Assembly (NCBI GenBank): GCA_034660515.1 | Contig: JAYEJI010000183.1 | Location: 1 to 58,519, forward strand | DNA: 58,519 nt | Direction of reading: 5' to 3' | Source of the DNA: Fidelibacterota bacterium | GTDB taxonomy: Bacteria; Fidelibacterota; Fidelibacteria; Fidelibacterales; Fidelibacteraceae | In this document: piece by piece, positions 5,911 to 47,500 of the stretch | Position numbering within the stretch: position 1 is the stretch's first letter | Layout: every line of letters starts with the position of its first letter | Made by a program: the position numbers and the translations under genes | The notes under the pieces: generated by a model | The model's input: only the letters and a program-made list of their open reading frames with translations | Told to the model about the DNA's origin: nothing | Database searches by the model: none

Positions 5911-6085
5911 ACAATCTCCTATGGGATCTATCGGTCTGTTTTTAGTTTGTGAAAAATAAAGGATTAATGATTTATAAACAATATAAAAGTTAGCATTTAT
6001 ACTATACACGTCAAGCTGTTCAATTCAAAACAATGGCTTTTGTTCTAATTATTGTTTATACTTATCCAACACACAGGAGAATAAA

Positions 6086-20854: not shown

Positions 20855-20883
20855 TTGACAAACATTAAATATTAGCATAAATT
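20855..20883 (+). promoter_or_regulatory. Sigma-70-like promoter of the receptor/T9SS-cargo operon
   Basis: TTGACA at 20855-20860, a 17-nt spacer, then TAAATT at 20878-20883. It lies about 90 nt upstream of the ATG at 20976. Confidence 0.45.
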
Positions 20884-20975: not shown

Positions 20976-23900
20976 ATGAGGCTAGTAAAATTGTTAGTAG
21001 CAATGCTGCTTATTGTTGGTATTGCATTTGCGGGTACTTCCGGTAAAATTTCCGGTTTTGTCCGTGATGCCGATACGGGCGATCCACTTCCGGGAGCGAA
21101 CGTATTGTTAAACGGTACCTCCATGGGAGCGGCTGCAAATGCTGAAGGTTATTTTGTTATTCTGAACATACCTCCGGGTACTTACGACCTGGTTGCATCT
21201 TATGTTGGATATGCAAGACTTCAGAATAGTGAGAATAGAGTCATGATCGATCGTTTAACAACGATTGATTTTGACATGAAAGTAGAAGCCTTTGCGGGTG
21301 AGGAAGTGGTCGTGACTGCGAAACGCGACCTTATCCAAAAAGATAACGCCAGTGGTCAGTTGAACGTTTCATCCGATGAGATCGAAGCGCTTCCGGTTAC
21401 GACCATTTCTGAAGTATTGAGCCTTAAAGCCGGTGTTTCAGGTATGAGCGTTCGTGGTGGTGGTTCAGATGAAACAGCATTTATGCTCGACGGTATCACT
21501 CAGCGCGATGCCCGAACCAATGAACCGATCACGACGGTTCCTTTAAGCGCTATTGGTGAAGTATCAGTTCAAACCGGTGGTTTCAGCGTACGCTATGATG
21601 ATGCCCGTTCGGGTGTTGTCTCGGTTGTAACCAAAGAAGGTAAAGTAGACAAATATTCAGGTACGGTTTCAATGCGTATGAGTCCTGCCGCTCCAAAGAA
21701 CTACGGTATTTCAGTCTATGATCCCAACGGTTACTGGCTATATCCTTATTTGAACGATGACGTTGCCTGGACCGGTACGAACAGGGAATCGTTTACAGAT
21801 TTGAATGGCAACGGTACTTGGGATGAACATGAACCGTTAAATGATGTAAATGGCAACCATCGATATGACGTACCTTTAGATGATTATGCTTATGACCAAA
21901 TAAAAGGAAATTATTTCAATGGTTGGGAAAGCGCGGCAATGAAAACTTTACAAAATGCCGGAGATGCTAATGATCTGACCGCATCCGGTGCTCAGCAAGT
22001 TTTCCGATATGAACACCGTAAAGATGGTCAGATATATCAATCCGATTATAATATGGACATTGGTTTTGGTGGTCCGGTACCAGTCTTAAGTAAATTTGGG
22101 AATATGCGTTTTTACGCTTCTTATTTCCGTGAACAGACCATGTACCTTATTCCCTTGACAACCGATGGCCTTCAAAATCAGTCGGGAATGTTAAAAATAA
22201 CAACTGATATTGGCCAAAAAGGAAAATTATCATTAACGGGCCGCCTGGGTTCTTTGGACGGTACATCTGCATCAACTCAGGGATATTCATCATATTTCTC
22301 AAGTGCCTGGGGTATTGCGAATCGTTTGGATCGTTCAGGATTTACAGTTCCATGGCGTATTTTTACATGGTCCTATTTTTCACATTTCCGTCGATACGAT
22401 AATTCCCTTGCTGCAAAATATACGCAGCAACTGACTGAAAAAAGCTTTTTCGATGTATCTGTTTCACGGACACAGACTCGTTATTTAACAGGTCCGGATG
22501 CTCTGCGTGATACAGCAAAAACAGTTGAAGTTGTTCCCGGATACTTTCTGGATGAACACCCAACCGGTTATTGGCCCTACAATGAAAGCAGTATTGATGG
22601 AAAAGTGATGCATGGTGGTTCGCTGGGTGCCGGTAGAGACTCTACGATAACAGCAACTTATATGTTTGACGCAAATTATAAAAACCAGGTATCTGAGAAC
22701 AATGAGTTGAACGCCGGTATTAAATTTCAATTGGAAGACATACATATTGACTTCGGTGCAAAGAATCTGATGTTACCCGATGGTAATGAATGGAATGATT
22801 TTCATTATAAACCTTATCGTTTGACTGCTTGGGCTGAAGATAAGTTGGAATACGAAGGTTTTTATGCAACCCTCGGTATAAAAGGTATGTACTTCAATCC
22901 GAATTGTGATTGGTATTTTCCTGCAACATATGATCCGACATTCTTTACCGGAAATTTTGATGAAGCCACCATGCCGGATTCAATTATACGCCCCGCGCAA
23001 GCGCAGTGGTATATTACACCGGTTTTAGCGATCTCTCATCCGATCTCAGAAAATGCCAAGCTGTTCTTCAACTACGGACATTTTATCCAAAAGATCAATA
23101 CGCAAACCATGTTCCGTTACGAGCGTGAAATGAGTCAGCAATTGAATTATCTTGGTAATCCGGAAGCGGCTTTTGAACGTACGATCGCTTATGAGCTGGG
23201 TTTTGATATGTCAATGTTCGATATGTACACTTTACACTTATCGGCTTATTATAAAGATATTAAAAATCAGGCAAGTTGGACTGACTATGTCGGTCTCGGC
23301 GGGCAGGTCAACTACTCAGCTTTAAATAACCGCTACTATCAGGATATTCGTGGTTTTGAATTAGAGTTAAAAAAAGTAATGGGCGACTGGTTTACCGGTT
23401 GGGTTAACTTTGAATACCGTGTTTCCTCTTCAGGTTATTTCGGTGTAGGTGTTCTCTATGATAATGATATCGAGAATCGCGAATATCTGGAAAACAATCC
23501 TTACCAGAGCAAACCCCTGCCACGACCTAGATTTAAAGCATATTTTGATATCCATACTCCCAAGTATTTATCAAATCCGATACTTGCAGACTGGCATTTG
23601 GCGGTTATTCCAACTTGGACAGCTGGTAGTTATACCACTTGGAACCCGAAGAACGCAGAAGATATTCGCGGTGCTCGGATCACATACAATACGAAGTATG
23701 TGGATTACTATAACATCGCCCTGAAATTGTCTAAGAAATTAAAGATAACCGACAAGATATCACTGAAAGTGTTTGCCGACGTTTCAAATGCCCTGAATAC
23801 CAAAAGGTTTTCGAATGTAGCTTATTATGACACATACGACTACTATGATTATATGTATTCACTGCATTTCCCGGCAGAAATCGGAGATCCGCTTGATTAC

Positions 23901-24203
23901 GGTAATATCCCCGGAACAGATAAACCCGGTGTTTACCGTGATCTTGATGTAGAATATGTACCGATGCAGTATGTTGAAGATATTGCAAGTTTCTCAAATG
24001 GAAAAGAAGGTATCCTGTATTTCAATGATGTTGATGACGATTACTATGTTTTCAGCAATGGGGTATTTACAACGGAAAACGATGCCACTGTTGATCAGAT
24101 AATGAAAGATAAAGCATATATTGATATGCCCGCTTTCGAAGCCTTGACATTCCTGAATCCGAGAAACATTTTCTTCGGTGTGAATGTATCATTTGATTTC
24201 TAA
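20976..24203 (+). CDS. TonB-dependent receptor-like outer-membrane protein with an N-terminal CarboxypepD_reg domain (copy 1)
   Basis: 1075 aa with a signal peptide and a carboxypeptidase-regulatory-like fold (GKISGFV.D..TGDPLPGANV...G....A...GYF.I.NIPPGTY). A TonB-box/plug-like region (EEVVVTAKR ... LDGI) follows. The terminal beta-strand ends in F (FFGVNVSFDF). Confidence 0.8.
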   Translation: MRLVKLLVAMLLIVGIAFAGTSGKISGFVRDADTGDPLPGANVLLNGTSMGAAANAEGYFVILNIPPGTYDLVASYVGYARLQNSENRVMIDRLTTIDFDMKVEAFAGEEVVVTAKRDLIQKDNASGQLNVSSDEIEALPVTTISEVLSLKAGVSGMSVRGGGSDETAFMLDGITQRDARTNEPITTVPLSAIGEVSVQTGGFSVRYDDARSGVVSVVTKEGKVDKYSGTVSMRMSPAAPKNYGISVYDPNGYWLYPYLNDDVAWTGTNRESFTDLNGNGTWDEHEPLNDVNGNHRYDVPLDDYAYDQIKGNYFNGWESAAMKTLQNAGDANDLTASGAQQVFRYEHRKDGQIYQSDYNMDIGFGGPVPVLSKFGNMRFYASYFREQTMYLIPLTTDGLQNQSGMLKITTDIGQKGKLSLTGRLGSLDGTSASTQGYSSYFSSAWGIANRLDRSGFTVPWRIFTWSYFSHFRRYDNSLAAKYTQQLTEKSFFDVSVSRTQTRYLTGPDALRDTAKTVEVVPGYFLDEHPTGYWPYNESSIDGKVMHGGSLGAGRDSTITATYMFDANYKNQVSENNELNAGIKFQLEDIHIDFGAKNLMLPDGNEWNDFHYKPYRLTAWAEDKLEYEGFYATLGIKGMYFNPNCDWYFPATYDPTFFTGNFDEATMPDSIIRPAQAQWYITPVLAISHPISENAKLFFNYGHFIQKINTQTMFRYEREMSQQLNYLGNPEAAFERTIAYELGFDMSMFDMYTLHLSAYYKDIKNQASWTDYVGLGGQVNYSALNNRYYQDIRGFELELKKVMGDWFTGWVNFEYRVSSSGYFGVGVLYDNDIENREYLENNPYQSKPLPRPRFKAYFDIHTPKYLSNPILADWHLAVIPTWTAGSYTTWNPKNAEDIRGARITYNTKYVDYYNIALKLSKKLKITDKISLKVFADVSNALNTKRFSNVAYYDTYDYYDYMYSLHFPAEIGDPLDYGNIPGTDKPGVYRDLDVEYVPMQYVEDIASFSNGKEGILYFNDVDDDYYVFSNGVFTTENDATVDQIMKDKAYIDMPAFEALTFLNPRNIFFGVNVSFDF

Positions 24204-24237
24204 ACGGATTGAGAAAATAGAAATAAAGGGTAAACAT

Positions 24238-26394
24238 ATGAAATTAAGTAAAATAAAAGTGTTGGTAAGCGTTCTGCTCCTCGTGGGAGTGATGGTTCTG
24301 CCGGCACGGGACATTAAATGGCTGGCGATCTCCGATCTGCAGAACTGGTTTTCGTCAGAAGGTTGTGAGATCGAGGTTGGCCGTACCGGTGCGACCGGTG
24401 ATCAGATCGACGGTTTGCGATATCCGGCACTCTATACTAAACAGGATGTACAATGCGCGAAGAGTCTCTGGATCGGTGCAGCAGATTATACAGATCCGCT
24501 CTCAAGTCCTATATACGATCACAAAGTAGTAAATATCGGACCGCGTCAGGTAGACGATCAAGGTGCCATATTTGATATGGAATATAAGCTTATCGGGAAG
24601 AAAGAACGCCCCGCAGTTTATGTTGACGGTTCACCTGCCAATCAGCTGGTCTATTTGGAACCAAGTTTGGATGAAGTTGATCCGGATTTGCCTTGCGACA
24701 GAATGATCTACAACCGTATAAATACCTCTATGGGTATTTCTTTTACTCGTAAAGTGATGGCATTCTCAAATAATTATCATCAAGCATATCATTTGTATGA
24801 ATTTGAATTTTCCAATACAGGAATCATTGATGATGCAGGTACCGTTAATTCACAAACATTGACCGGGGTTTATTTTTATTGGACTGCCCGATATGCAATG
24901 AACCGTGAAGCAACGATCTATGAGCTGGGTATTCTGCCTCAGGCAGCTACCTGGGGCCGTAATACGATGAACCATGCTTTTGGTATTAAAGGTAATTGGG
25001 GCGCCGGTATGACTGAAGATATTAATATTCAAGGTACCGTAAAGACCATACCCACAAATTTGCGTGGTGTATTTTCATGGCAGGGAAGTTGTACAAAAGC
25101 TGCTACATCCCACGCAGATGATTTTGGTGCACCCTATGCCGAAGGCGATAAACGTTTAACATCAGTGCAGTTCCCGGGTATTGTTGTGATCCATGCGGAT
25201 ACGAGTCCATCTGATACAACTGATGATGTTAACCAACCGCATGCCTGGCAATCTATTGCAAGTGATTTAAAACCTCATACCAATAATATGGATCAATATG
25301 ATCGCCCTGCAATGGATGGACGTTATGAATATATGGAAGGTGTGGCTCCAGTAGGTTATTTAGATATGTCACATGCGGAATATGTAATAGCAGCTAATGA
25401 AATTCCTTTCGATAATATGCCTGATTGGCCGGGTAATGGTGGTGGACTCTCAGCCGCATATGGTTTTGGTCCCTATACCTTGGCATCCGGAGAATCAGTA
25501 AAGATCGTTTATGCTGAAGCTGTCGGAAGTATTGATATGAATACACGACGAACAGCCGGTCTTGATTATGATAATGGAGCAATTGATTTAGTACAAAAAG
25601 ATGCTATCATCACACAGGGTGTTGACAGTCTTTTCCAATATTTTGCAAGAGCAGATGCAAACTATAAATCAGGTTATAATGTAGCTTTTCCACCGGAAGC
25701 ACCGGAAAGTTTTTCCGTGATCGCCGGTGGTGATCGCATTAGCTTGACATGGGCTCGCAACAGTGAAAATTCAACAGGCTTTACAGGTTATCGGATCTAT
25801 AGAGCTTTAGGTGAATACGATTCAACTTATCATCTGCTTCTTGATGTGACTAATCCCAATGATTATGTTTTGGATGCAGATTACTGTAAATATGATGATC
25901 GTACTGCTGTTCGTGGTTTTGATTACTATTATTATATTGCTGCTTACGATGACGGAAGCGTTGACGGAGCCGGACGCCTTCTTTCAAGCAGTAAATTTTA
26001 TACTTTAACCAGCTCACCGGCTCAGTTGAAACGCTTGCCGGGTACCTCTCTTGAAAGTATTCGAATTGTACCGAACCCTTATCATGTTCGTGCAAAACAA
26101 ATGCAATTTGGTACTGCCGGGGGACAAGCTGACCGTATCATGTTCTACAATATTCCACCAAAATGTAATATTAAGATCTATACGGAACGTGGTGATCAGA
26201 TCTGGGAAACAGAACATGTCAACAACAGTGGTGATGAAGCCTGGGCATCCATTACGGACTTCCGTCAGGTTATTGTCAGTGGTGTGTATATTGTTGTGTT
26301 CACCGTCACCGAAGACTATGTTAATGAGTCAACGGGAGAGATATACTGCCTGGATGGTGAACAAAAGATCAAGAAATTTATAGTAGTAAGATAA
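24238..26394 (+). CDS. Secreted 718-aa protein of unknown family: novel N-terminal domain, FN3-like module and divergent T9SS-CTD-like end (partner 1)
   Basis: I place the start at MKLSKIKVLV (signal peptide, no lipobox), preceded by an aaaggg RBS. The FN3-like segment is PEAPESFSVIAGGDRISLTWA...GYRIYRA...YYYYIAAYD. The C-terminus is IRIVPNPY...MFYNIPPKCNIKIYTERGD...SGVYIVVF...KKFIVVR. Confidence 0.7.
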   Translation: MKLSKIKVLVSVLLLVGVMVLPARDIKWLAISDLQNWFSSEGCEIEVGRTGATGDQIDGLRYPALYTKQDVQCAKSLWIGAADYTDPLSSPIYDHKVVNIGPRQVDDQGAIFDMEYKLIGKKERPAVYVDGSPANQLVYLEPSLDEVDPDLPCDRMIYNRINTSMGISFTRKVMAFSNNYHQAYHLYEFEFSNTGIIDDAGTVNSQTLTGVYFYWTARYAMNREATIYELGILPQAATWGRNTMNHAFGIKGNWGAGMTEDINIQGTVKTIPTNLRGVFSWQGSCTKAATSHADDFGAPYAEGDKRLTSVQFPGIVVIHADTSPSDTTDDVNQPHAWQSIASDLKPHTNNMDQYDRPAMDGRYEYMEGVAPVGYLDMSHAEYVIAANEIPFDNMPDWPGNGGGLSAAYGFGPYTLASGESVKIVYAEAVGSIDMNTRRTAGLDYDNGAIDLVQKDAIITQGVDSLFQYFARADANYKSGYNVAFPPEAPESFSVIAGGDRISLTWARNSENSTGFTGYRIYRALGEYDSTYHLLLDVTNPNDYVLDADYCKYDDRTAVRGFDYYYYIAAYDDGSVDGAGRLLSSSKFYTLTSSPAQLKRLPGTSLESIRIVPNPYHVRAKQMQFGTAGGQADRIMFYNIPPKCNIKIYTERGDQIWETEHVNNSGDEAWASITDFRQVIVSGVYIVVFTVTEDYVNESTGEIYCLDGEQKIKKFIVVR

Positions 26395-26424
26395 ACAAGA
26401 ACATATAATTAGAAGGAAAGTAGT

Positions 26425-27030
26425 ATGAAAAAAGTATTGCTTATATCAATAGCTATCACATTGATAGCGCTTACAGGGTGTATCTATTCACCCGCAACGC
26501 ATGTTCCGACTGCTGCCGAACAGGCTGTATTGGATATCTTTGCAAATGACACATCAGCAACCATGGATACGGTTGACTGTGTGATCCTTGAGGCAGTAAA
26601 TGCCGAATGGAAAGAATCTTATATTGATACCGTCACCGGGTTTATCGGTATTGATACCAACTTTACGAATCCCTTTACTGCCGGAGCTGTTCTGGTACCG
26701 GGAAATGCCCAAAAAACACGTATCAATGTTATTGGCGCATATCTAAGCGGATATGCAAAGATCAGCTTAACGGCTGCAACCGAACTTAATTTATACATGG
26801 ATATCCATGGTTCTATTAAAGTTTGGGATGCAACCGGTACTCTCGTTGATTTTGATGTTTACGGTATGAGCCCCGCATGCGCAATGGTTTTTAAAGGTGA
26901 CGCAACCGGTTCCGTTATTCGTGAACATTATACATATTCACTGGATGCCGGAAACTACTATATTCGATTCACAAAAGCGGAGAACGCAGCATATAAAAGC
27001 AGAGGCTTCTTTTATGCTGTCGTTAACTAA
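26425..27030 (+). CDS. Small lipoprotein, function unknown
   Basis: 201 aa with an aaggaaag RBS and a lipobox (LIALTGC). Confidence 0.65.
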   Translation: MKKVLLISIAITLIALTGCIYSPATHVPTAAEQAVLDIFANDTSATMDTVDCVILEAVNAEWKESYIDTVTGFIGIDTNFTNPFTAGAVLVPGNAQKTRINVIGAYLSGYAKISLTAATELNLYMDIHGSIKVWDATGTLVDFDVYGMSPACAMVFKGDATGSVIREHYTYSLDAGNYYIRFTKAENAAYKSRGFFYAVVN

Positions 27031-27070
27031 TAATATTAGCTAATACATTTAGATATTTAAGGAGTTTAAG

Positions 27071-28054
27071 ATGAAACGAATTATTAGTATAATCCTTTTA
27101 GTCCTGATCGCATTCTCATTCGGCTTGGCCAAAGATCAAAAACTGGCTCAGACCGGCATGCAATTTCTTTCGGTAGCCACAGATGGCCGTGGAGCTGCAA
27201 TGGGTCAGGCAATGACCGCGATAGAAGCCTATTCGATGGCTTTCTTCTATAACCCTGCATCAGCAGCAAAAATGACAAAGACCATGGATCTGACAGCCAG
27301 TCAGAACAATTGGATCGCAGGGATCAAACACAATGCTTTTTCAGTTGCTTTCAACCCGTCAAACGGACGTTTTGGTGTTTTTGGTATCACAGCCCGCAAT
27401 ATCGATTACGGTGATGTAGATGCTACGATCGTTGCTGAGAATGACTTGGGTTACATTGACCTTGGAGTTATGAATCCTACAGCACTTTCTGTTAGTGTCG
27501 GTTATGCCCGTTCACTGACAGATAAATTCGCTGTTGGCGGTAATGTTGGTTATGTTGTTCAACAGCTTGGTCAAAGCGTTGTTCCTTACGGTGACAGCCT
27601 ACAGACCAAATCCAATGTTGCCGGTGGTATTACCGTTGATTTCGGTACATTATACTACACCGGTTGGAAAAGCCTGGCATTCGGTATGAGTGTCCGTAAC
27701 TTCTCCGGCGAGATCAAATATGAAGATGAAGGTTTTCAGCTTCCTTTGACCTTTTCAATGGGTCTTTCAATGGATGTTCTGGATCTTCTTCCCGAAAAAC
27801 CGCAAGGTCAATCTCTAAAGTTATCAGTTGATGCACTGCATTACCGTTCACATCCGGAACAGCTTAATATTGGGCTGGAATACGGTTTTGCGAACTTGGT
27901 ATTTGCACGTGCAGGTTACAGAACAAGTGAAGACATCCAGGCACTTAGCTTTGGTATTGGTTTGAATATCAAGGGTATTGTTGTGGATTACGCATATACA
28001 CCGACAGTGGATTTTGTCGATGTACAACGCTTCACAATTGGTTTTGCATTTTAA
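27071..28054 (+). CDS. PorV/PorQ-like outer-membrane beta-barrel (putative T9SS cargo shuttle)
   Basis: 327 aa with an aaggag RBS and a signal peptide. The N-terminal motif AQTGMQFLSVATDGRGAAMGQAMTA...NPA matches my recollection of PorV/LptO. It has alternating beta-strand patterns and a C-terminal FTIGFAF. Confidence 0.55.
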   Translation: MKRIISIILLVLIAFSFGLAKDQKLAQTGMQFLSVATDGRGAAMGQAMTAIEAYSMAFFYNPASAAKMTKTMDLTASQNNWIAGIKHNAFSVAFNPSNGRFGVFGITARNIDYGDVDATIVAENDLGYIDLGVMNPTALSVSVGYARSLTDKFAVGGNVGYVVQQLGQSVVPYGDSLQTKSNVAGGITVDFGTLYYTGWKSLAFGMSVRNFSGEIKYEDEGFQLPLTFSMGLSMDVLDLLPEKPQGQSLKLSVDALHYRSHPEQLNIGLEYGFANLVFARAGYRTSEDIQALSFGIGLNIKGIVVDYAYTPTVDFVDVQRFTIGFAF

Positions 28055-28072
28055 TTAACTGAATAACAAAAG

Positions 28073-31000
28073 ATGAGAATTATGCGCAAGATATTACATA
28101 TTATCATTTGCCTTGTCTTGTTGTCATCAGTATTGATGGCGGGAACCTATGGTAAGATCAGTGGTCGCGTTGTCAATACGGAAAATGATGAGCCTCTTAT
28201 TGGTGCCAATGTTCAGATTGAGGGAACAGGCCTTGGTTCATTTACAGACGAAAACGGTTATTTCGTTGTTTTAAATGTACCGCCTGCTTCTTATAACGTG
28301 ATTGCCTCCATGGTGGGTTATACAAAAACCATTGTGAAAGGTGTTCAGGTTCGTATCGATCTGACATCTAAAGTGAACATAGCTTTAAGCGAAGAAGTGA
28401 TCGGATTGGATGAAGTGATCGTTACCGCTAAAAAAGAGATCATTAAAGTTGATGTGGCAAGTAGCCAGACCAATATTTCTTCCGACCAGATCAAGGCACT
28501 TCCGGTACAAAGTATGAATGATGTTATCGGAATGGAAGCGGGTATTGATGAGAATTTCAATATTCGTGGTTCCTCAGCTTATGAAGCCGCATTCTCGGTT
28601 GACGGTATGAGTATGAACGATGAACGTTCAAACATACCTTATACAACCGTAAGTATCAACTCGGTACAAGCTGTCAATATTCAGATCGGTGGATTTAACG
28701 CCGAATATGAAAATGCCCGTTCCGGTGTGATCAATGTGGTAACAAAAGAAGGTAAAAAAGACAAATACGAAGCCGGTGTAACTATCCGTTATGCCGCAGC
28801 AAATAAAAAATATTTTGGACCGGTTATTACTGCTGCCGATGCCTATTTCGGTCGTCCATATAATGACGATGATGTAGCATGGTGGGGAACCGATCCTGAA
28901 AGTTTCTTGGATATCAATGAGAATGGTCAATGGGATCTTGGTGAACCCTTTGAAGATAGAAACGGAGATGCTATTTATACGGATTCTCCCTGGGATATTT
29001 ATGAACGAAGTTCAAACAGATCCTGGGAAGGCTTCAATGATTATTCTCTGAATAGTTTACGGGATAATGATGAAGATAATGATCTGACCGCAGCCGCATG
29101 GCAACGCGTTTATCAGTATCAACATCGCCGTTCTGCAAATATTGTCAGTCCCGATTACACTGTTGATGTCGGTGTGGGGGGGCCTGTGCCCTTTATTGGA
29201 GAGAAGCTCGGTAATTTACGTTTCTTTGCTTCTTATCGTGGAGAACAGGAAGCACTTGCAGTTCCTTTTGCAAGTGATACCTATAATGACAATAAAGCAA
29301 CTCTAAAATTGACATCTGACATTTCACCAAAGATCAAATTGAATATTTCCGCCATGTACAGTAAGACCCGGTCCGTTTCTTATGCGTCTTGGACCTCACT
29401 GCCTTCAGGCGAAAATTATTTTAAGTCTGTTTCTTATGCTACAAATGTTGCCAGTACGGATTATAGGGTTTTTATGGATGCAAGCTATTGTCCGACTGAG
29501 ATCACTCGTAGCAGCATTGGCTTACGCTTAACACATCAGCTTAATAATCACTCTTTTTACGAGGTTGATTTGCAGCGTATGGGGTCAGATTACTATACTC
29601 AGCGTTTGGCACCACGCGACACAACACGAAATGTTGAAGTTGTTCCCGGATACTTCCTGGATGAACAACCCTTTGGTTACTGGTTTACCGAAGACGGTGA
29701 TGGAATTGGCGGTTTTGAAGATGTTGTAGGTATGCGTACGGATTGGGGTGGTTTTGCGACTGACCGCAGTAAGAACTATACAACGATCGCAAAAGCCGAT
29801 TACAAAAATCAGTTCAATGAAAACAACGAATTTAAAACTGGATTTAAATTCGTTTATACCGAATATTACATTAATGCCTGGAATGATCATCCCGGCAACA
29901 TGTTCTGGAACTATTACAATGAATGGTATCAGGATCCATGGCGCTTGGGTGCTTATGCACAGGATAAACTTGAATTCGAAGGCATGGTCGTTAATCTCGG
30001 CTTGCGTTTTGATATGTCTCAGGCAAACACTGAATGGTATGTATATGACCAATTTGATGTATTGTTGAACACATCGAATGGCCCACATATCGACAGCCTT
30101 GCAACAAAGGCAAAAACAAAAGCCATCACGGCTTTAAGTCCTCGTTTTGCCATTTCACATCCAATATCCGAACGGGCAAAGATCTACTTTAACTACGGGC
30201 ACTTCAATGCTCTGGCTCAGTCACGTTATCGATTTGTTGTAGACAGACTGGGTACCGGACAGATCAATCGTTTGGGTAATCCTGAGATCCCTTACAGTCG
30301 TACGATCCAATACGAATTGGGATACGAACATCGCCTGTTTGATGATTACCTGTTTAAGCTTAAAGGATATTATAAAGATATCAGTGATCAGCCGGCGTGG
30401 ACATATTACACCAGTCTTGATCATAAGGTCAGTTACTCGGTTGCGGATGCAAGAAATTATAAAGACGTTCGTGGTTTTGAAGCTGAGATCAAGAAAAGTT
30501 ATGGTGATTTCTTTCTCTTTAATATGAACTTTACCTATCAGGTCGTTTCTTATGGTTACTACGGCAATACTCGTTACTACGAGAATCCGACAGAACAGAT
30601 GGAATACGATCGTGATAATCATATATCCACCCATTATCAAACACGCACCTTGCCGGTTCCTTTGTTTGAATCATACTTCCTGTTCCGCACTCCTGCGGAT
30701 TACAGTTTGTTTGGCTTAAATCCGATGATCACAGGCGATTGGGCTGCTAACCTGATGTTTGAGTGGCAAGCAGGTTCTGTTACGACCTATAGCCAGACAG
30801 ATGATCCTTATGTGAGGGATAATGTTCGCTGGAAAGATTACTATATGACAGACCTGAAGATCTCAAAGAGGATCAACCTCAAACCGGTAAGTGTTTCATT
30901 GTTCCTTGATATTAATAATGTATTGAATACCAAACGCCTGAGTTATTCCGGATTCTCCAATATTTATGATCGTTACGATTATCTGAATTCATTGCATTTT

Positions 31001-31312
31001 AGTGATGAAACAGGTGTTGAAATGGGCAATGATAAGATCGGTGATGTAAGGAAAGATGGTGTTGATTATACTCCGATCGTGAGTGTAAATGATATTAGTG
31101 CACGCACAACGGTAGGTAATACCCTGGCATTATATTACGATAATGTCAGTGAATCTTACTTTGCCTGGGATGGGTCTGCATTTGTAGCGGCTGACCAAGC
31201 TCATGTGGATCAGGTTTATAAAGATAAAGCATATATCAATATGCCCAATATAGATAGCTTTACTTTTCTGAACCCGCGTAAGATCTCTTTTGGTATAACA
31301 CTTAATTTCTAA
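28073..31312 (+). CDS. TonB-dependent receptor-like outer-membrane protein with a CarboxypepD_reg domain (copy 2)
   Basis: 1079 aa, colinear paralog of 20976..24203. Shared blocks are GKISGRV, GANV, GYFVVLNVPP, VIVTAKK, VEVVPGYFLDE, DKAYINMP and FLNPRK. It ends in F. Confidence 0.8.
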   Translation: MRIMRKILHIIICLVLLSSVLMAGTYGKISGRVVNTENDEPLIGANVQIEGTGLGSFTDENGYFVVLNVPPASYNVIASMVGYTKTIVKGVQVRIDLTSKVNIALSEEVIGLDEVIVTAKKEIIKVDVASSQTNISSDQIKALPVQSMNDVIGMEAGIDENFNIRGSSAYEAAFSVDGMSMNDERSNIPYTTVSINSVQAVNIQIGGFNAEYENARSGVINVVTKEGKKDKYEAGVTIRYAAANKKYFGPVITAADAYFGRPYNDDDVAWWGTDPESFLDINENGQWDLGEPFEDRNGDAIYTDSPWDIYERSSNRSWEGFNDYSLNSLRDNDEDNDLTAAAWQRVYQYQHRRSANIVSPDYTVDVGVGGPVPFIGEKLGNLRFFASYRGEQEALAVPFASDTYNDNKATLKLTSDISPKIKLNISAMYSKTRSVSYASWTSLPSGENYFKSVSYATNVASTDYRVFMDASYCPTEITRSSIGLRLTHQLNNHSFYEVDLQRMGSDYYTQRLAPRDTTRNVEVVPGYFLDEQPFGYWFTEDGDGIGGFEDVVGMRTDWGGFATDRSKNYTTIAKADYKNQFNENNEFKTGFKFVYTEYYINAWNDHPGNMFWNYYNEWYQDPWRLGAYAQDKLEFEGMVVNLGLRFDMSQANTEWYVYDQFDVLLNTSNGPHIDSLATKAKTKAITALSPRFAISHPISERAKIYFNYGHFNALAQSRYRFVVDRLGTGQINRLGNPEIPYSRTIQYELGYEHRLFDDYLFKLKGYYKDISDQPAWTYYTSLDHKVSYSVADARNYKDVRGFEAEIKKSYGDFFLFNMNFTYQVVSYGYYGNTRYYENPTEQMEYDRDNHISTHYQTRTLPVPLFESYFLFRTPADYSLFGLNPMITGDWAANLMFEWQAGSVTTYSQTDDPYVRDNVRWKDYYMTDLKISKRINLKPVSVSLFLDINNVLNTKRLSYSGFSNIYDRYDYLNSLHFSDETGVEMGNDKIGDVRKDGVDYTPIVSVNDISARTTVGNTLALYYDNVSESYFAWDGSAFVAADQAHVDQVYKDKAYINMPNIDSFTFLNPRKISFGITLNF

Positions 31313-31327
31313 TGATTCGAGGAATAT

Positions 31328-33550
31328 ATGTTTAGATCGAATATTTCAAATAAAATCCTAATAATTGCAGTATTGATACTGCTTTCGGCGATGGCGATCG
31401 GGCAAAGCTATATTGATCCGGGACTTCAAAAGTACATCAATGTAGGTTCTCTGCAATCTCCTTTCTCCGCGGGTGGCTGCGAACGGGCATATAATAATGT
31501 CTACTATGAGGGACTGAAGTGGCCGGCATGGTATTCCTATACGGATAACCATGTTATTGACCGTCAATGGCTGGTTTGTAAGAACTATGTAAATCCCGGC
31601 GGTACGACCTTTGACTATCTGGGTCTCTATTTTTCACCCAGCAGTTTGAATCCGGACTATGGTTTCCCCATGGTATTGACCCAAACCGCACAGTTCGAAA
31701 CGCCTATCGTAGAGGTCGACTTTAACCAGAAGATCGAAGAAGATTATATAGATGACTATCATGATGATGGTGTTAGCTATGATCGTAAACTGGTCAACGT
31801 ATTCAATAGTTATCTCGGTATTGAATATACCAGAACAGTATATGCCTATTCCCAGGAATACCATGATAATTATTTCATTACCGAATATGTATTGAAAAAT
31901 ACGGGTAATACCGATTATGATGCCGATATCGAACTGCCCAATAACAGTATTGAAGGATTGCTCTTTGGTATGATGCCGCGCTATGCCACCAGCCGTGAAG
32001 TCGGATTTGTGACCAGTGGGCAGATGACTTGGGGAAAAGACCAGTGGGTTTCCTTCATGAATATCGATGATGTTGCTACATCTACATACAATCCCGATAG
32101 TTTGCGCTGTTTCTGGACTTGGTTCGGACAAAACTCCGATATTTCATCCGCTTGGGATCATATCGGAGGACCCGATGGCGGAAAAGGAACCCTTTTCAAC
32201 AGTAGAGCCGGACGTCTGACAGGCCCCCAATTTGCAGGAATGGCCTTTGTTCATGCGGATAAATCAGCAACAGATAAATCTGATGATATCAGTCAGCCCC
32301 GAACTCTAAGCTGGCATGGTGGTGATTCATATCCTTCTGTTTACGGCAAGAGTGTATCAGGTTCTAAAAACCTGTATGATATGTTGACATGGGCATCTGA
32401 ATATGCTGATGCCGAAAGCGGTTTTGGAAAAGGGGATACTATTCCAATGGTAGGTCCTAATGCAATGCGCAAGCCATATGGTGATGAAAAACCGCAAGCT
32501 GATTTTGAAGCCAGCAAGAAAAATGACGGTGGCGGTGCAGCTGCCATGGTTGCTTTTGGCCCTTACGATCTGGAGATCGGAGAAAGTGTCCGTATCGTCC
32601 TTATAGAAGCTGTCAGTGGCTTGGATAGGCAAAATTGTGTTAAAGTCGGTGAGAACTGGCTGGCAAGCAAAAACCTTATCCTACCGGACGGTTCCACGAC
32701 AACGGACCGCGATGAATATAAAAATGAATGGTTTTATACCGGTCGCGATTCATTGTTCCAAACATTTAAACGTGCCCGGGCAGCTTTCCGTAATGACCTG
32801 GTTATTACCGAACCCCCGCTGCCACCCAGTACGTTCAGGATCAACTCCGAAGGTGATAATATCCATTTGAGCTGGGTAGACAGTCCTTCGGAAATCGATG
32901 TAAATTTTGGCGGTTATAAAATATATCGTGCCATGGGCTCTGTAGATTCTTTCTATCATGAAATATATGCCTGTGGTGCCGGTACGGGAAATCCGATCAT
33001 CTACGATTACAAAGATCGTGAAGCAATTCGCGGATTTTCCTATTATTATTATATTACCGCATTTTCAGACGGTAGTTTAAATACGGATGCAAGTCTTAAT
33101 CCGGTGGGTGAGCTCGAGAGCAGTCGTGCTTATACGCAAACAAAACGCGCTGCTTATCTGCGTCGCCCCCAAGGTTTGGATTTACAAAATATCCGTATTG
33201 TACCAAATCCCTACAACCTGAAAGCCGATTCCCGGAAACCGAATGCAACACAGTTGCAATTCCCGGGTGCTGACGGCTATGATAAGATCATGTTCTACAA
33301 TATACCGGGTAAATGTGTTTTGAAGATCTATTCGGAACGTGGTGACTTGGTCAAAGAGATCAATCATCAGACCGGAAGTGGGGACGAAGAATGGAAAATT
33401 ACAACATCAAGCGGGCAGATCGCCGTAGCAGGTGTGTATATACTTTTTGTAGAAGTAAGCGAAAATATTTATGTGGATGGTGATCCCACGAAAGACCTTG
33501 TCTATCGTGAGGGTGAATCCATATACAAAAAATTCATTATTGTAAGATAA
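31328..33550 (+). CDS. Secreted 740-aa protein, paralog of 24238..26394 (partner 2)
   Basis: It has a gagga RBS and a signal peptide without a lipobox. It shares FGPY.L..GESV.IV.AE and FN3-like GYKIYRA...YYYYITAF segments with partner 1. The C-terminus is IRIVPNPYNL...MFYNIPGKCVLKIYSERGD...AGVYILFV...KKFIIVR. Confidence 0.7.
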   Translation: MFRSNISNKILIIAVLILLSAMAIGQSYIDPGLQKYINVGSLQSPFSAGGCERAYNNVYYEGLKWPAWYSYTDNHVIDRQWLVCKNYVNPGGTTFDYLGLYFSPSSLNPDYGFPMVLTQTAQFETPIVEVDFNQKIEEDYIDDYHDDGVSYDRKLVNVFNSYLGIEYTRTVYAYSQEYHDNYFITEYVLKNTGNTDYDADIELPNNSIEGLLFGMMPRYATSREVGFVTSGQMTWGKDQWVSFMNIDDVATSTYNPDSLRCFWTWFGQNSDISSAWDHIGGPDGGKGTLFNSRAGRLTGPQFAGMAFVHADKSATDKSDDISQPRTLSWHGGDSYPSVYGKSVSGSKNLYDMLTWASEYADAESGFGKGDTIPMVGPNAMRKPYGDEKPQADFEASKKNDGGGAAAMVAFGPYDLEIGESVRIVLIEAVSGLDRQNCVKVGENWLASKNLILPDGSTTTDRDEYKNEWFYTGRDSLFQTFKRARAAFRNDLVITEPPLPPSTFRINSEGDNIHLSWVDSPSEIDVNFGGYKIYRAMGSVDSFYHEIYACGAGTGNPIIYDYKDREAIRGFSYYYYITAFSDGSLNTDASLNPVGELESSRAYTQTKRAAYLRRPQGLDLQNIRIVPNPYNLKADSRKPNATQLQFPGADGYDKIMFYNIPGKCVLKIYSERGDLVKEINHQTGSGDEEWKITTSSGQIAVAGVYILFVEVSENIYVDGDPTKDLVYREGESIYKKFIIVR

Positions 33551-33567
33551 AAATGAAAGGATGTAAA

Positions 33568-34794
33568 ATGAAGAAGACACTGATGAGTCTTAGTTTGATC
33601 TTAATCGTAGTCCTGGCATTGACAGGGTGTTATGAATGGCCGGATCCTATCTGGAATCCCGATGATACCGGTTTGCCGACACCTACTATCACCGGGGTGG
33701 ACGTAACGACCTTAATGGGCGGTATTGATAATATCACCATTACAGGTACTGGATTCGGTGATGTTAAAGAAGAAGTATTGGTCTATTTCAAAAAAGGTAC
33801 AACCGTTGGACGAGGTAGAACCCTTACGGCAACTAATACACAGCTCGTTGTTGAAGCACCTGCCACTTATTCGGATTCACTTGAGATCTGGATCGATCGT
33901 CGCGGATGTTTTGAATACGCAAAAGATACAACGAACCTGATCACTATCAATGCAGGTATAAAATCATTACCGATCATCTCGACCTCTCCTCTAATTAAGG
34001 TTGGTATCAATGAAAATGGTGATATCATCGTTGCTCAGGGATCAAACCAGAGTGTTATCTCTGTAACCGTTGATGATTCGATCTCAACTATTCCGGGTGT
34101 TGCCTTTTCCAACTCATTGAATATCTTATCATTGAGAACAAAGGGAACAGACATTTACTATACACTTCGTGAATATCTGGTAAAATATGATGGTGCATTA
34201 ACTCGTTTTAAAGTCAATGCAAATAAAGAAAATTGTGTTGATTTTGCCTTTGCCGACAACAATAAAGTTTATATTGTTGGAAATGGTTTTATCTATTCGG
34301 CCGATGATGTATTGGCAAGTTCGACACTTGCTCTTGATGATACTGATTATAATTTTACCAAATGCGATTTTTATGATGGCAAGCTTTATGTTGCTTCAAC
34401 CTATCAGGGTGATGACACTCTGAAAACAAATGAAAAAGCGATCATGGCTTATCCTGTCAATACCGATGGTACACTGGGTACAGCTGAAACGATCATTAAC
34501 TGGACAGATGATTTCGCCGGTTCGATCATTTCCAATATCACCTTTGATGCCGATGACAGAATGTACGTTGCAACCCTTACCCGCACACCGATCTATGTGA
34601 TAGAACCGGTTGCCGGTTCTTATGCTGATGGCAATATCAGTCTTCTGTATCCGGTATTGCTCAATGACAATATTATCAGTATGCGCTGGGAAACGGGTGA
34701 TTATATGGCCTTCCTCGCTGAAGACAACGATGCTATGAGAACAGTCTATCGCCTGAATATGCTCGAAACGGCTTCGGCCAGTTATATCCCCTAA
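33568..34794 (+). CDS. Lipoprotein with an IPT/TIG-like domain and a probable beta-propeller
   Basis: The RBS aaagga sits 6 nt before the ATG at 33568; the ORF-track start is 33553. It has a lipobox (LALTGC) and an IPT-like segment (PTITGVDVTTLMGGIDNITITGTGFG), followed by repeated strand-rich segments. Confidence 0.6.
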   Translation: MKKTLMSLSLILIVVLALTGCYEWPDPIWNPDDTGLPTPTITGVDVTTLMGGIDNITITGTGFGDVKEEVLVYFKKGTTVGRGRTLTATNTQLVVEAPATYSDSLEIWIDRRGCFEYAKDTTNLITINAGIKSLPIISTSPLIKVGINENGDIIVAQGSNQSVISVTVDDSISTIPGVAFSNSLNILSLRTKGTDIYYTLREYLVKYDGALTRFKVNANKENCVDFAFADNNKVYIVGNGFIYSADDVLASSTLALDDTDYNFTKCDFYDGKLYVASTYQGDDTLKTNEKAIMAYPVNTDGTLGTAETIINWTDDFAGSIISNITFDADDRMYVATLTRTPIYVIEPVAGSYADGNISLLYPVLLNDNIISMRWETGDYMAFLAEDNDAMRTVYRLNMLETASASYIP

Positions 34795-34888
34795 ATAAGC
34801 GGATAAAAATTATTGCATTTAATAAACGAAAATGTTAAGATATGACATTATAGCAAATAATTAGAAAATCTAATCAAAAGGAGAAAAC

Positions 34889-36364
34889 ATGAAGAAAATG
34901 TTAGCTGTCTCATTGGTGCTCTGTGCTGCCGTTGCGTTTGCAGGCCCTGCCGGATATTATTTCGGTGAGCTTATGTATAACTTTAATGGCGCCGACAGTG
35001 TGAAAACAGAATACACACTGCTGGATGGCTCAGGTGGACACCAGACATCACCACACAGTGTTGTAGTTGACCCCGACGGTAAAGTATGGATCGGTTACTA
35101 TTATGGTTATACCGGTCAGATTGAAAATGCCCTCGGTGATACACTTACCTTAAAAGGTATGCGAATATTCATGCCTGATGGTACACCTGCAACATTCTCA
35201 CCTATCGAATATCTAGAATTTGATGATGGTTCAAAAGATACCATTTATGGTGAAAGTGCATACAATGGTTCTTGCCGTGGTATGTCAGCAATGGCAAATG
35301 GTGATATCCTCTTTACTGCATGGTCAACGATCTATAAGATCGACTACACTACCGGTGAAGGTATTGCAATGTGGAATCCTCCGATGGACGGACATGTTGC
35401 CGGTTCGATGACCGAAGCAGCTCATGATCCTGAACTCGGATTGATCTACGCCGGTCGCGTTTCTTCAAACAAACCGATCTACGTTCTTGATGAAGACCTT
35501 GCTTATGTCGGTATTGCAGTTGATACCTGCCCGACACTGCATCGTTCAATCATCGCTCGTACAACTTCAACCGGTATGGGCCAAATTTTTTCAGGTACGA
35601 TCTGGAATGGCCAGGGTATCTTTGTTTACGAATCAGATGATCCTGAATTCACCATGTTCGAATTGGTTGACACTTTAGGTAACTATGATGTTGACACCGA
35701 TTCAAACACCATTACTTACAAAGCTTGGGCAAGTTGTTTGGACTGGGTTGATGTAGATGAAGGTGTTCTCGTCTATGGTAACTATCAATCAGCAAAAGTT
35801 TATGTTGATGTTGCTACTGCTCCTGCAAATACTCATTCATCAAAATGGATAATTTTTGATGTTGATGATGATGCAGAAGTTGCTCAATTTGGTGCTAAAT
35901 ACTCATACACATACGATGTAACTGAAAATACTGCCTCTGATTCACTTGACAATCAACCTGCAACTTGGGCACCTCGCGGTGCTTCAGTCAAAGTAGCTGG
36001 CGATCATTATGAATTCGTCATTGCTGACTTTGACTTAAGTACGATCCAAAAAGTTGTCTGGTCTGCAGATGGTCTTGAAGGTAACGACAGATTTGTTCCT
36101 TATGGCTTTGTCTTAGAACAAAACTATCCGAACCCCTTCAACCCGACCACAAGCATCTCTTTCCGTATTCCTGAAAGTTTTGATGTCGCTGTCGACGTTT
36201 ATGACTTAGCAGGTACGAAAGTTGCTACAGTTTATAGTGGCCGTATGGATGCCGGTACACATAACATGACCTTTGATGCTTCAAACTTAGCATCAGGTAC
36301 TTATGTTTATCAGCTGACAGCCGGTGAATTTACTGTATCACGTAAGATGACTCTCGTTAAATAA
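34889..36364 (+). CDS. Beta-propeller-like surface protein with a T9SS type A C-terminal sorting domain
   Basis: 491 aa with an aaaggag RBS and a signal peptide. The canonical CTD reads LEQNYPNPFNPTTSISF...VYDLAGTKV...SGTYVYQL...RKMTLVK. Confidence 0.8.
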   Translation: MKKMLAVSLVLCAAVAFAGPAGYYFGELMYNFNGADSVKTEYTLLDGSGGHQTSPHSVVVDPDGKVWIGYYYGYTGQIENALGDTLTLKGMRIFMPDGTPATFSPIEYLEFDDGSKDTIYGESAYNGSCRGMSAMANGDILFTAWSTIYKIDYTTGEGIAMWNPPMDGHVAGSMTEAAHDPELGLIYAGRVSSNKPIYVLDEDLAYVGIAVDTCPTLHRSIIARTTSTGMGQIFSGTIWNGQGIFVYESDDPEFTMFELVDTLGNYDVDTDSNTITYKAWASCLDWVDVDEGVLVYGNYQSAKVYVDVATAPANTHSSKWIIFDVDDDAEVAQFGAKYSYTYDVTENTASDSLDNQPATWAPRGASVKVAGDHYEFVIADFDLSTIQKVVWSADGLEGNDRFVPYGFVLEQNYPNPFNPTTSISFRIPESFDVAVDVYDLAGTKVATVYSGRMDAGTHNMTFDASNLASGTYVYQLTAGEFTVSRKMTLVK

Positions 36365-36385
36365 AATAACGAAACATCATACATT

Positions 36386-36413
36386 AAAAACCCGTCTTCG
36401 GACGGGTTTTTTT
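36386..36413 (+). terminator. Strong intrinsic terminator ending the 15-kb operon
   Basis: aaaaACCCGTC ttcg GACGGGT ttttttt. Confidence 0.9.
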
Positions 36414-36429
36414 ATATTTATGGATATTC

Positions 36430-36465
36430 TTCAGTAGCCTCGGGTTTAAACCCGAGGCTACTGAA
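36430..36465. repeat. Perfect 36-bp palindrome (family copy 1)
   Basis: TTCAGTAGCCTCGGGTTT|AAACCCGAGGCTACTGAA. It starts 17 nt after the terminator and ends 102 nt before the ATG at 36567. Confidence 0.9.
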
Positions 36466-45516: not shown

Positions 45517-45532
45517 AAGGAGCTGAGAATAA

Positions 45533-46828: not shown

Positions 46829-46872
46829 GTTTTCAATTCACGCAGTTCCCATGGAACGTGTGAGAGGATGAT

Positions 46873-47484
46873 ATGGCAAAGATAAAGCTGACAAAGAACG
46901 AATTAAAAAAACAGAAAGACGCGTTAAAACGCTATACGCGTTATCTGCCGACACTGGAGCTAAAAAAGCAGCAATTGTTGGCAGAGATCCGTCGCGTTCA
47001 TGATGAGATCCATCAGTGTGAAGGTAGATTGAATACCCTGAAACAGCAATTAGCGGCTTGGGTTGCAGTATTTGCTGAAGACGTGGATATTGCTTCTCTT
47101 TTTTCACTGAAACAGATACTTACCGATACGGGTAATATTGCCGGGATCAATATTCCCTTATTCGTGAAAGTCGAATTTGAAGATAATACCTACGACCTGA
47201 TGGCCTATCCGCTATGGGTGGATACCGGTATCCATGTCACAAAAGAAGCAATCTCGCTCCAGAAAGAACTTGAGATCCTTAAAGAACAGGAAACGCTTAT
47301 TCAGGAAGAGTTGCGGACAACGATTCAACGCATCAACCTCTTTGATAAGGTGATGATCCCCCGATCTAAAGAGAATATCCGAAAGATCCGGATCTTTATG
47401 GGTGATCAGGAGACCGCGGCTGTGGTTCGTGGTAAAATATCCAAGACCAAGATCGAAAAGAAAAAATTAGAACAGAGAGCTTAG
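46873..47484 (+). CDS. ntpD: V-type ATPase subunit D
   Basis: 203 aa. The N-terminal TKNELKKQKD.LK......LL.LKKQ coiled coil is typical of subunit D. Confidence 0.8.
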   Translation: MAKIKLTKNELKKQKDALKRYTRYLPTLELKKQQLLAEIRRVHDEIHQCEGRLNTLKQQLAAWVAVFAEDVDIASLFSLKQILTDTGNIAGINIPLFVKVEFEDNTYDLMAYPLWVDTGIHVTKEAISLQKELEILKEQETLIQEELRTTIQRINLFDKVMIPRSKENIRKIRIFMGDQETAAVVRGKISKTKIEKKKLEQRA

Positions 47485-47500
47485 ACGCGAGAGGCAATAC

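Follow-up and report, generated by a model that had tools for sequence, protein, structure and literature searches.

A family of predicted surface partners of TonB-dependent transporters whose type IX-like C-terminal domain tracks a PorV-like barrel gene in Fidelibacterota and related phyla

The DNA analysed here (the window) comprises the 58,519 nucleotides of contig JAYEJI010000183.1, from the Fidelibacterota bacterium assembly GCA_034660515.1, and the element under study within it is a gene at 24238..26394 which, together with a second copy at 31328..33550, encodes the proteins that we call partners A and B. The reading that we prefer, to which we give a probability of roughly 0.55, is that the partner would be a capture subunit of the TonB-dependent transporter encoded immediately upstream, exported through the secretion system of type IX (T9SS) and held at the cell surface by an uncleaved C-terminal domain (CTD) seated on a cognate PorV-like barrel. 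By analogy with known systems, the partner would best be read as a functional counterpart of SusD, BtuG or TbpB that is not a lipoprotein.

Both open reading frames (ORFs) are real and, as an earlier note on this DNA had stated, they are paralogous and share the same layout; each has a signal peptide, an N-terminal domain of about 455 residues, a fibronectin type III (FN3) domain and a C-terminal domain of about 110 residues, the two proteins being alignable from end to end with 33% identity (E 2e-98). The longest ORF of partner A opens at 24184 and overlaps the upstream gene, but the start is placed at the ATG at 24238 because a proper signal peptide, MKLSKIKVLVSVLLLVGVMVLPA, begins there and because the homologs align from that residue. 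Neither this signal peptide nor that of partner B, MFRSNISNKILIIAVLILLSAMAIG, contains a cysteine, and therefore both proteins are without a lipobox. The motifs that the earlier note had quoted are present in the two copies (FGPYTLASGESVKIVYAE and FGPYDLEIGESVRIVLIE; SLFQYFARA and SLFQTFKRA; SLTWA; GYRIYRA and GYKIYRA; YYYYIAAYDDGS and YYYYITAFSDGS; and, towards the end of the protein, IRIVPNPY, MFYNIPPKCNIKIYTERGD and MFYNIPGKCVLKIYSERGD, and KKFIVVR and KKFIIVR), with the exception of the pattern Y.EF...NTG, which was approximate, as the sequences read YEFEFSNTG and TEYVLKNTG and the conserved part is NTG. These islands are kept in an alignment of 65 sequences from multiple phyla, which indicates a large family and no chance resemblance.

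The protein search returned 206 homologs, at least 535 partner loci are found in species-representative genomes, and in a search of 1.8 billion representative proteins the matches at E<=1e-30 amount to 721 clusters formed at 50% identity; the nearest relatives, at 74-81% identity, come from metagenome-assembled genomes of Candidatus Neomarinimicrobiota/Fidelibacterota. Public annotation names the members of the family “hypothetical protein” or “fibronectin” and, given such generic labels and the lack of a Pfam or NCBIfam model, the family is invisible in current genome annotation. No published description of the family or of the transporter-partner-barrel triad was found in open-access text, including the papers on the genomes of Caldithrix and Melioribacter as well as a review of T9SS effectors.

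The best 80 of the partner loci belong to Neomarinimicrobiota/Fidelibacterota, Calditrichota, KSB1, Ignavibacteria/Melioribacteraceae, Kryptoniota, WOR-3 and Delongbacteria. To follow the synteny, the window proteins were compared with all the ORFs of 83 loci. A TonB-dependent transporter gene is found directly 5′ of the partner gene in 94 of 97 evaluable cases, across several phyla and with a median gap of 25 bp, which upholds the notion of a partner protein family put forward in the earlier note; a PorV-like gene follows no more than 1.6 kb downstream of the partner in 71 of 74 cases. The commonest orders of transporter (T), partner (P), PorV-like gene (V) and TIG-domain lipoprotein (TIG) are T-P-V-TIG, T-P-V-TIG-T'-P' and T-P-V-T'-P'-TIG. 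The A-type and B-type orthologs are each conserved, in the same relative order, across phyla, and this separate conservation rules out a recent local duplication as the origin of the A/B pairs; since the same gene orders recur across loci, the A/B tandem of the window is ancient.

The C-terminal module had been likened to a T9SS type A CTD, and the comparison with CTD profiles bears this out: an hhalign comparison of the partner CTD with 54 canonical CTDs, drawn from the same loci as the partner family, gives a probability of 96.5% (E 9e-10) from the PNP to the last strand, and the AlphaFold2 (AF2) model of partner A contains seven core strands over residues 609-716, in agreement with what marks a type-A CTD, an Ig-like beta-sandwich of some 80-100 residues that closes the protein and has a PNPF-type motif, a G.Y strand and a final strand of basic/hydrophobic character. 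When the CTDs of 37 family members are scanned on their own, they give sub-threshold matches to TIGR04183 (29 of 37 at E<=1, with a best E of 3.4e-6), to the PorZ C-terminal region (33/37), to CHU_C (23/37), to the PorU C-terminus (19/37) and to Por_Secre_tail (11/37); TIGR04131 is not among the ten families most commonly matched by these CTDs at E<=1. PF18962 gives no match on partner A, and neither TIGR04183 nor PF18962 gives one on partner B. In the longer relatives P0190, P0203 and P0212, the shared N-terminal and FN3 domains are directly followed by a genuine Por_Secre_tail, at 33.7-42.6 bits against a cut-off of 27, and canonical CTDs are present in 40 of 149 family representatives. Among the best 150 matches of the search of 1.8 billion proteins, relatives of about 700 residues keep the special CTD, and longer ones are fused to N-terminal BNR/sortilin propellers or to C-terminal beta-helix regions. 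From the hhalign result and from the canonical tail that relatives carry at the same position it follows that the module is a derived type-A CTD and the family, in all probability, T9SS cargo. Two of the loci show the N-terminal and FN3 domains in other settings: at L088:7393-11901 they form part of a long stand-alone T9SS cargo protein with a canonical CTD and a region resembling beta-helix/pectinesterase proteins, with no transporter nearby, and at L087:8001-11660 they are fused to a BNR/sortilin propeller and a canonical CTD, upstream of a GHL10 gene and of a canonical transporter-partner pair.

The special CTD carries an insert between the PNPY and the first canonical strand. The earlier note had described the domain as interrupted in this way, and the insert is real, but it is shorter than the 20-25 residues then given: the spacing from PNPY to the cysteine is 27 residues in A and 33 in B, with a family median of 25, against about 15 in canonical CTDs, and the net insert is some 11-13 residues in A and 18-19 in B, the hhalign gap in the canonical CTDs being of 11 columns. 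AF2 models it, at low confidence (pLDDT 53-63), as a helix over residues 617-628. The cysteine in question, Cys643 of partner A, has an equivalent in a second special-CTD family, described below. A conserved cysteine that might pair with it was sought in the partner, among 102 transporters and among 79 PorV-like proteins, whose median is 0 Cys, and was not found; as there is no other invariant cysteine in these proteins, an intermolecular disulfide with the transporter or the barrel is unsupported; possible roles for Cys643 are those of a free thiol, a buried residue, or a link to something beyond the cassette. The CTD is also the most conserved domain of the partner, with a mean pairwise identity of 0.57 vs. 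0.47-0.49 in the rest of the protein, a degree of conservation unusual for a secretion tag.

Hidden Markov models (HMMs) were built for the special and for the canonical CTD, and the barrel genes that come next were then counted for each class. A PorV-like gene comes next after 82 of 91 special-CTD partners and after 3 of 3 special-CTD proteins of another family (together 85/94), but after only 1 of 53 canonical-CTD proteins of the same loci, the association between the CTD subclass and the barrel gene being exclusive. The three proteins of the other family, found in the flanks of the loci, have an unrelated body, and the PorV-like gene stands directly after each of them, at a distance of -3 to +1 bp. 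This second family consists of proteins of 930-1150 residues with no Pfam domain and has more than 2,300 database matches; 117 of 120 members end in the same CTD subclass, with the pattern PNPx, 29-36 residues, C.I.IY. It takes the place of the partner in a triad of transporter, partner and PorV-like gene both in Caldithrix abyssi (Calab_3298), which is in culture, and in CP070787, a complete genome of Fidelibacterota, and these triads adjoin peptidases of the M20, M14 and S8 families. The barrels beside the first and the second family are 24-29% identical to each other and CP070787 has at least two of them, and they thus look like dedicated paralogs and not like a general PorV shuttle. The suggestion, already contained in the earlier note, that a divergent CTD could mean a distinct route of sorting or attachment is supported by the counts of barrel genes, the route itself being putative.

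As regards the N-terminal domain, it had been said to carry no recognizable signature, and this stands at the level of sequence: nothing exceeds the cut-offs of Pfam or NCBIfam, and the profile of the 65-sequence alignment finds in the PDB a single match, to the FN3-like 3mpc (E 6e-4), and none for the N-terminal domain. The fold, on the other hand, appears to be recognizable. The AF2 model of partner A, built from the same alignment, consists of a large and mostly beta N-terminal domain, an FN3 sandwich and a C-terminal sandwich of seven strands. A Foldseek search with the whole model was swamped by multi-domain and FN3 matches (TM about 0.2), and for this reason the N-terminal domain was predicted again (pLDDT 92.8, pTM 0.93) and searched alone, whereupon the top matches were the N-terminal supersandwich domains of the glycoside hydrolase (GH) family 94 phosphorylases (E 3e-7 to 2e-6), followed by GH116, GH65, GH63, aldose 1-epimerase and YidC P1 (probability 1.0, E up to 5e-3). 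Identity in these matches is 7-12%, the TM-score normalised to the query 0.25-0.39, and the rmsd large. The galactose-mutarotase-like fold is typical of carbohydrate-active proteins, and the N-terminal domain, as modelled, would be a new sequence family on this fold, with similarity at the level of the fold only. When the domain was compared with known hydrolase, lyase or binding families, none matched, and what was found was only the fold that serves in GH94, GH65 and GH116 as a non-catalytic accessory domain, which the model suggests to be that of the partner as well. Membership of a glycoside hydrolase, lyase or carbohydrate-binding module (CBM) family was rejected, as there is no sequence match and the GH catalytic domains are absent.

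In the NTG island, N193 is nearly invariant and G195 invariant across the 65 sequences, and the further invariant or near-invariant positions of the N-terminal domain, charged residues for the most part, are E44, R155, R218, H319, D321, D326, D330 and Q333. Several of these fall in a conserved acidic motif, HADKS..D..DD..QP, at about residues 319-334 of partner A (window 25192-25239), with H319, A320, D321, S323, D326, D330, Q333 and P334, a motif that its conservation makes a candidate site for binding a metal or a ligand, or for catalysis. The FN3-like module, for its part, has proved to be what it was taken for: profile positions 478-568 match the “Fn3-like protein” 3mpc (the match mentioned above), Foldseek matches to FN3 domains have a probability of 1.0, and AF2 gives a beta-sandwich over residues 491-571; the Pfam fn3 model gives no match on the partner.

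Among the other members of the cassette, transporter A combines a plug and a large barrel with a CarboxypepD_reg extension at the N-terminus and a motif like a TonB box, EEVVVTA, and the profile of 18 of its orthologs matches the N-terminal extensions of TonB-dependent transporters (6ytc, 9hfj), the plugs of PqqU, YncD and PfeA, and the PhuR barrel. Transporters A and B are 38% identical; against the SusC/RagA model TIGR04056, B reaches 58.1 bits, with a cut-off of 368.25, and A gives no match. The barrel at 27071..28054 lies below the equivalog cut-offs of PorV (80.6 vs. 250) and PorQ (78.1 vs. 220) and below that of PorP/SprF (TIGR03519, 53.6 vs. 90.55 bits), and it matches PorV of F. johnsoniae in the PDB (6h3i_F, E 5e-5). 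In about half of the loci the gap between partner and barrel holds a small and fast-evolving lipoprotein gene; of the gap ORFs of 40 loci, 37 are homologous and make up a single cluster, marked by a signal peptide, a cysteine and an acidic run. Their typical mature N-terminus, C(D/E)x(F/Y)(E/K)(D/E)xxYxIS..D..AC, from which the copy in the window diverges, recalls the acidic signal by which lipoproteins of Bacteroidota are exported to the surface. The lipobox cysteine of the TIG lipoprotein is invariant in 39 of 39 orthologs. The 491-residue canonical cargo protein has a body with no recognizable domain, its orthologs elsewhere show faint matches to SGL/NHL propellers, and in many loci they come after the TIG gene.

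If we accept these elements as parts of a single device, the partners would be exported by the Sec pathway and then translocated to the cell surface by the T9SS, where the N-terminal beta-supersandwich, projected by the FN3 spacer, would bind a nutrient, most likely an oligosaccharide or glycan and possibly a peptide. The special type-A CTD, with its helical insert, its invariant cysteine and its strong conservation, would stay on the partner after export and dock on the PorV/PorQ-family barrel encoded in the cassette, and this docking would position the partner in the outer membrane beside the transporter; the small and the TIG-domain lipoproteins, like the downstream canonical-CTD proteins, would be accessory surface parts of the uptake complex. 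The architecture and folds of the domains, the homology of the CTD, the synteny of the cassette and the exclusive tie of the CTD subclass to the barrel gene are what the analysis shows, whereas dependence on the T9SS, retention of the CTD, contact with barrel and transporter, and the ligand itself are what we infer; once the logic of CTD and barrel is combined with the invariant pairing with the transporter, an uptake complex is the most economical model. A broader reading, which we put forward tentatively and at somewhat less than even odds, is that phyla of the Fibrobacteres-Chlorobi-Bacteroidetes (FCB) group outside Bacteroidia, among them Marinimicrobia/Fidelibacterota, Calditrichota, KSB1, Ignavibacteria, Kryptoniota, WOR-3 and others, might use an undescribed class of uptake system in which a transporter works with a capture subunit that is delivered by the T9SS, bears no lipid and is held on a dedicated barrel of PorV-like type by an uncleaved CTD with a helical interruption and a cysteine; this CTD would be a new type matched by barrels of its own, two or more unrelated families of subunit would have been recruited, and the whole would be a general alternative to SusC/SusD.

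What is new here is the joining of two known kinds of arrangement, that of a transporter with its surface partner and that of T9SS cargo with its cognate barrel. With SusC/SusD (RagA/RagB) the cassette shares a partner gene placed directly 3′ of a large TonB-dependent transporter with a CarboxypepD_reg extension, an extracellular location of the partner (here predicted) and accessory surface lipoproteins in the same operon (the TIG-domain protein and the small one); it differs in that the partner is predicted to be all-beta (supersandwich, FN3 and Ig-like CTD) whereas SusD is alpha-helical with tetratricopeptide repeats (TPR), in that the partner has no lipobox, and in that a PorV-like barrel belongs to the cassette. 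That the partner might itself be a SusD homolog was rejected, as it has no SusD-family match in Pfam or NCBIfam, its AF2 model is mainly beta and its signal peptides lack cysteine. BtuG with BtuB and TbpB with TbpA likewise offer a beta-rich extracellular protein that captures a ligand for the TonB-dependent transporter of the adjacent gene, but BtuG and TbpB are anchored by an N-terminal lipid, while the anchoring proposed for the partner is by a T9SS CTD and a barrel. For this second aspect the precedents are the uncleaved CTDs of PorU on PorV and of PorZ on PorQ (PMC10202324), with which the partner would share a retained C-terminal Ig-like domain of T9SS type docked on a barrel of the PorV/PorQ family; the protein bodies are unrelated and, in our case, the barrel gene adjoins the cargo gene and the link is with a transporter instead of with the secretion machinery. 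Type-B CTD cargo is clustered with genes for PorP/SprF barrels (SprB/SprF, PG1035/PorP), its CTD being thought to remain uncleaved and the barrel to be the surface anchor (PMC10202324), and the genetic logic of a cargo gene beside a dedicated PorV-like barrel gene is the same; the partner CTD, however, aligns best with type A, and the adjacent barrel is of the PorV/PorQ and not of the PorP/SprF family. Lastly, the supersandwich domains of GH94, and also of GH65, GH116, GH63 and aldose 1-epimerase, give, with Foldseek E values of 3e-7 to 2e-5, the best structural matches to the N-terminal domain of the partner, which is not followed by a catalytic domain and shares no sequence family with them.

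Several facts weigh against the reading of the partner as an anchored capture subunit. The cassette is surrounded, in the window and elsewhere, by housekeeping genes and not by clusters of carbohydrate-active enzymes (CAZymes); a neighbourhood of the CAZyme or polysaccharide utilization locus (PUL) type was sought around the cassettes and not found, a GHL10 protein with a CTD being the sole recurrent enzyme neighbour. The structural similarity of the N-terminal domain is modest (query-normalised TM 0.32-0.39), and the supersandwich fold is not restricted to sugar binding, as it also occurs in YidC P1 and amine oxidase. The CTD of partner A misses every curated cut-off, with 14.3 bits vs. 23 for TIGR04183 and, for CHU_C (PF13585, cut-off 27), 15.5 bits with the full protein and 20.6 with the CTD alone. 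Partner B and some others have no PorV-like gene directly downstream (9/91), and in these cases either one barrel serves two partners or docking is not obligatory. Finally, a partner subfamily with the CTD motif NKINFYGLPPKCDI, encoded at L084:6762-13177 directly upstream of rimP-nusA-infB, is accompanied by its transporter and a 220-residue protein but by no PorV-like gene in the vicinity, an exception to the rule of the triad.

These facts have to be weighed together with the other ways of explaining the cassette. If the CTD were an ordinary, cleaved T9SS signal, the PorV-like protein would be a dedicated but transient shuttle, the partner would end up linked to glycolipid or released, and any contact with the transporter would be non-covalent and would take place through the N-terminal and FN3 domains; the module is, after all, clearly a relative of type-A CTDs, relatives hold ordinary CTDs at the same position, and the cassette provides no separate barrel gene for partner B. 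However, it would be surprising if a signal destined for removal were better conserved than any other domain of its protein, had an invariant cysteine and a family-specific insert, and tracked a dedicated barrel gene as exclusively as the counts of 85/94 and 1/53 indicate, and we therefore consider this explanation unlikely. It seems to us improbable that the partner is an enzyme, for example one that cleaves or modifies glycans on its supersandwich and so processes the substrate at the surface for the transporter: the conserved charged residues of the N-terminal domain and the motif HADKS..D..DD..QP would suit such a function, mutarotase-type supersandwiches can be catalytic, and in relatives there are fusions with beta-helix modules (pectin-lyase-like) or with BNR propellers, but no catalytic family matches in Pfam, NCBIfam or the PDB, the best folds are the non-catalytic N-terminal domains of GH94, GH65 and GH116, and there is no (alpha/alpha)6 or TIM catalytic domain.

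PorV is a member of the FadL-like superfamily of barrels, and some barrels of the cassettes have weak matches to Toluene_X, so that the barrel could also be imagined as a channel of FadL/TodX type for a hydrophobic substrate, linked only indirectly with the CTD subclass; yet it is far above the cut-off of the PorV/PorQ family (181.5 vs. 90 bits) and its presence follows the CTD subclass and not the transporter or the locus, and of all the explanations we give this one the very smallest credence. Little more can be granted to the idea that the transporter-like protein is an exporter or assembly factor of the Oar type and that the cassette displays the partner as an adhesin or a component of a surface layer, with no import of nutrients. 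The CarboxypepD_reg extension at the N-terminus is also found in Oar-class transporters, and protein secretion in Myxococcus depends on Oar (PMC6434023); moreover, the cassette is near single-copy and lies amid housekeeping genes. But SusC importers carry the same N-terminal extension, the partner already has a T9SS-type signal, and the recurrence of the triad with different partner families beside peptidases, and beside a LacI regulator (in one locus), fits nutrient uptake.

The interest of the anchored capture subunit lies in the organisms that would use it. The TonB-dependent transporters that Marinimicrobia and related phyla possess are regarded as major routes by which organic matter is taken up in sediments, digesters and the dark ocean, and to our knowledge these phyla lack most partners of the SusD type. 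The triad of transporter, CTD-anchored partner and PorV-like barrel would offer for them an easily recognized and testable model of substrate capture, and suggests that several little-studied phyla may build nutrient-capture machines unlike the SusC/SusD of Bacteroides. In addition, the pairing of a CTD subclass with barrels of its own could be the reason why part of the T9SS cargo is left uncleaved, a question posed in a review of the system (PMC10202324).

Table 1. Features of the window, with positions on its own numbering (loci of other genomes are given with their own identifiers).
Feature	Position	Strand	Size or residues	Remarks
Bacterial small signal recognition particle (SRP) RNA, RF00169	19036-19130	+		41 bits vs. 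cut-off 40; directly 5′ of dnaX
dnaX	19159-20850
Promoter-like site TTGACA-17-TAAATT	20855..20883	+		dnaX/transporter intergenic; candidate start of the cassette operon
TonB-dependent transporter A	20976..24203	+	1075 aa	CarbopepD_reg_2 3e-18, Plug 2e-8 (Pfam)
Partner A	24238..26394	+	718 aa	AF2 pLDDT 89.3, pTM 0.85
Partner A, signal peptide			1-22
Partner A, predicted N-terminal beta-supersandwich	24310-25677		~25-480
Partner A, FN3	25693-25962		~486-575
Partner A, derived T9SS CTD	26059-26391		~608-718
CTD insert	26083..26136	+	616-633	between PNPY and first canonical strand (AF2 + hhalign)
Cys643 of partner A	26164-26166	+		invariant in 65/65 family members
Small lipoprotein	26425..27030	+	201 aa	lipobox LTGC; local divergent member of a fast-evolving family
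PorV/PorQ-family outer-membrane barrel	27071..28054	+	327 aa	NF033709 181.5 bits, cut-off 90
TonB-dependent transporter B	28073..31312	+	1079 aa	ancient paralog of A
Partner B	31328..33550	+	740 aa	architecture as in A; special-CTD HMM 145.7 bits
IPT/TIG-domain lipoprotein	33553..34794	+	413 aa	lipobox LTGC; Pfam TIG 2.5e-6; conserved cassette member
Canonical T9SS type-A cargo	34889..36364	+	491 aa	Por_Secre_tail 40 bits, TIGR04183 41 bits; last gene of the putative operon
Two strong terminator-like hairpins	36386..36465	+		directly 3′ of the 491-aa gene; candidate operon end
Second canonical T9SS type-A cargo	36567..38087	+	506 aa	probably a separate transcript
V/A-type ATPase gene cluster	43783-49312	+		catalytic A subunit and I subunit recognized
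Phosphodiester glycosidase (NAGPA) domain protein	50047-52533	+		canonical T9SS type-A CTD; third canonical T9SS cargo of the window
Second-family loci	L008:2-3385; L011:309-2572; L070:1-1680; L090:5137-11828; L091:5300-12022			L090, Caldithrix abyssi; L091, Fidelibacterota CP070787

The features of the window, whose GC content is about 40%, are collected in Table 1. On the + strand 3′ of dnaX the genes are tightly packed, and the gaps in the stretch 20976 to 36364 measure 2-94 bp. The site that precedes them is the top-scoring promoter-like match of the region, with a support that is positional only, the overall counts of such matches not being above chance; between 20976 and 36364 there is no hairpin comparable to those that follow the last gene. 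An Rfam search for a riboswitch or other RNA element that might name the substrate gave solely the SRP RNA upstream of dnaX.

Upstream of the cassette and on the opposite strand there are two genes of the GH13 alpha-amylase family, at 3526-6009 (-) and 16609-18669 (-), and a sodium:solute symporter, at 14698-16536 (-), which hint at alpha-glucan metabolism, with no tie to the cassette established. One of the two GH13 genes carries a CBM48 and the other a glycogen-binding module of the AMPK type.

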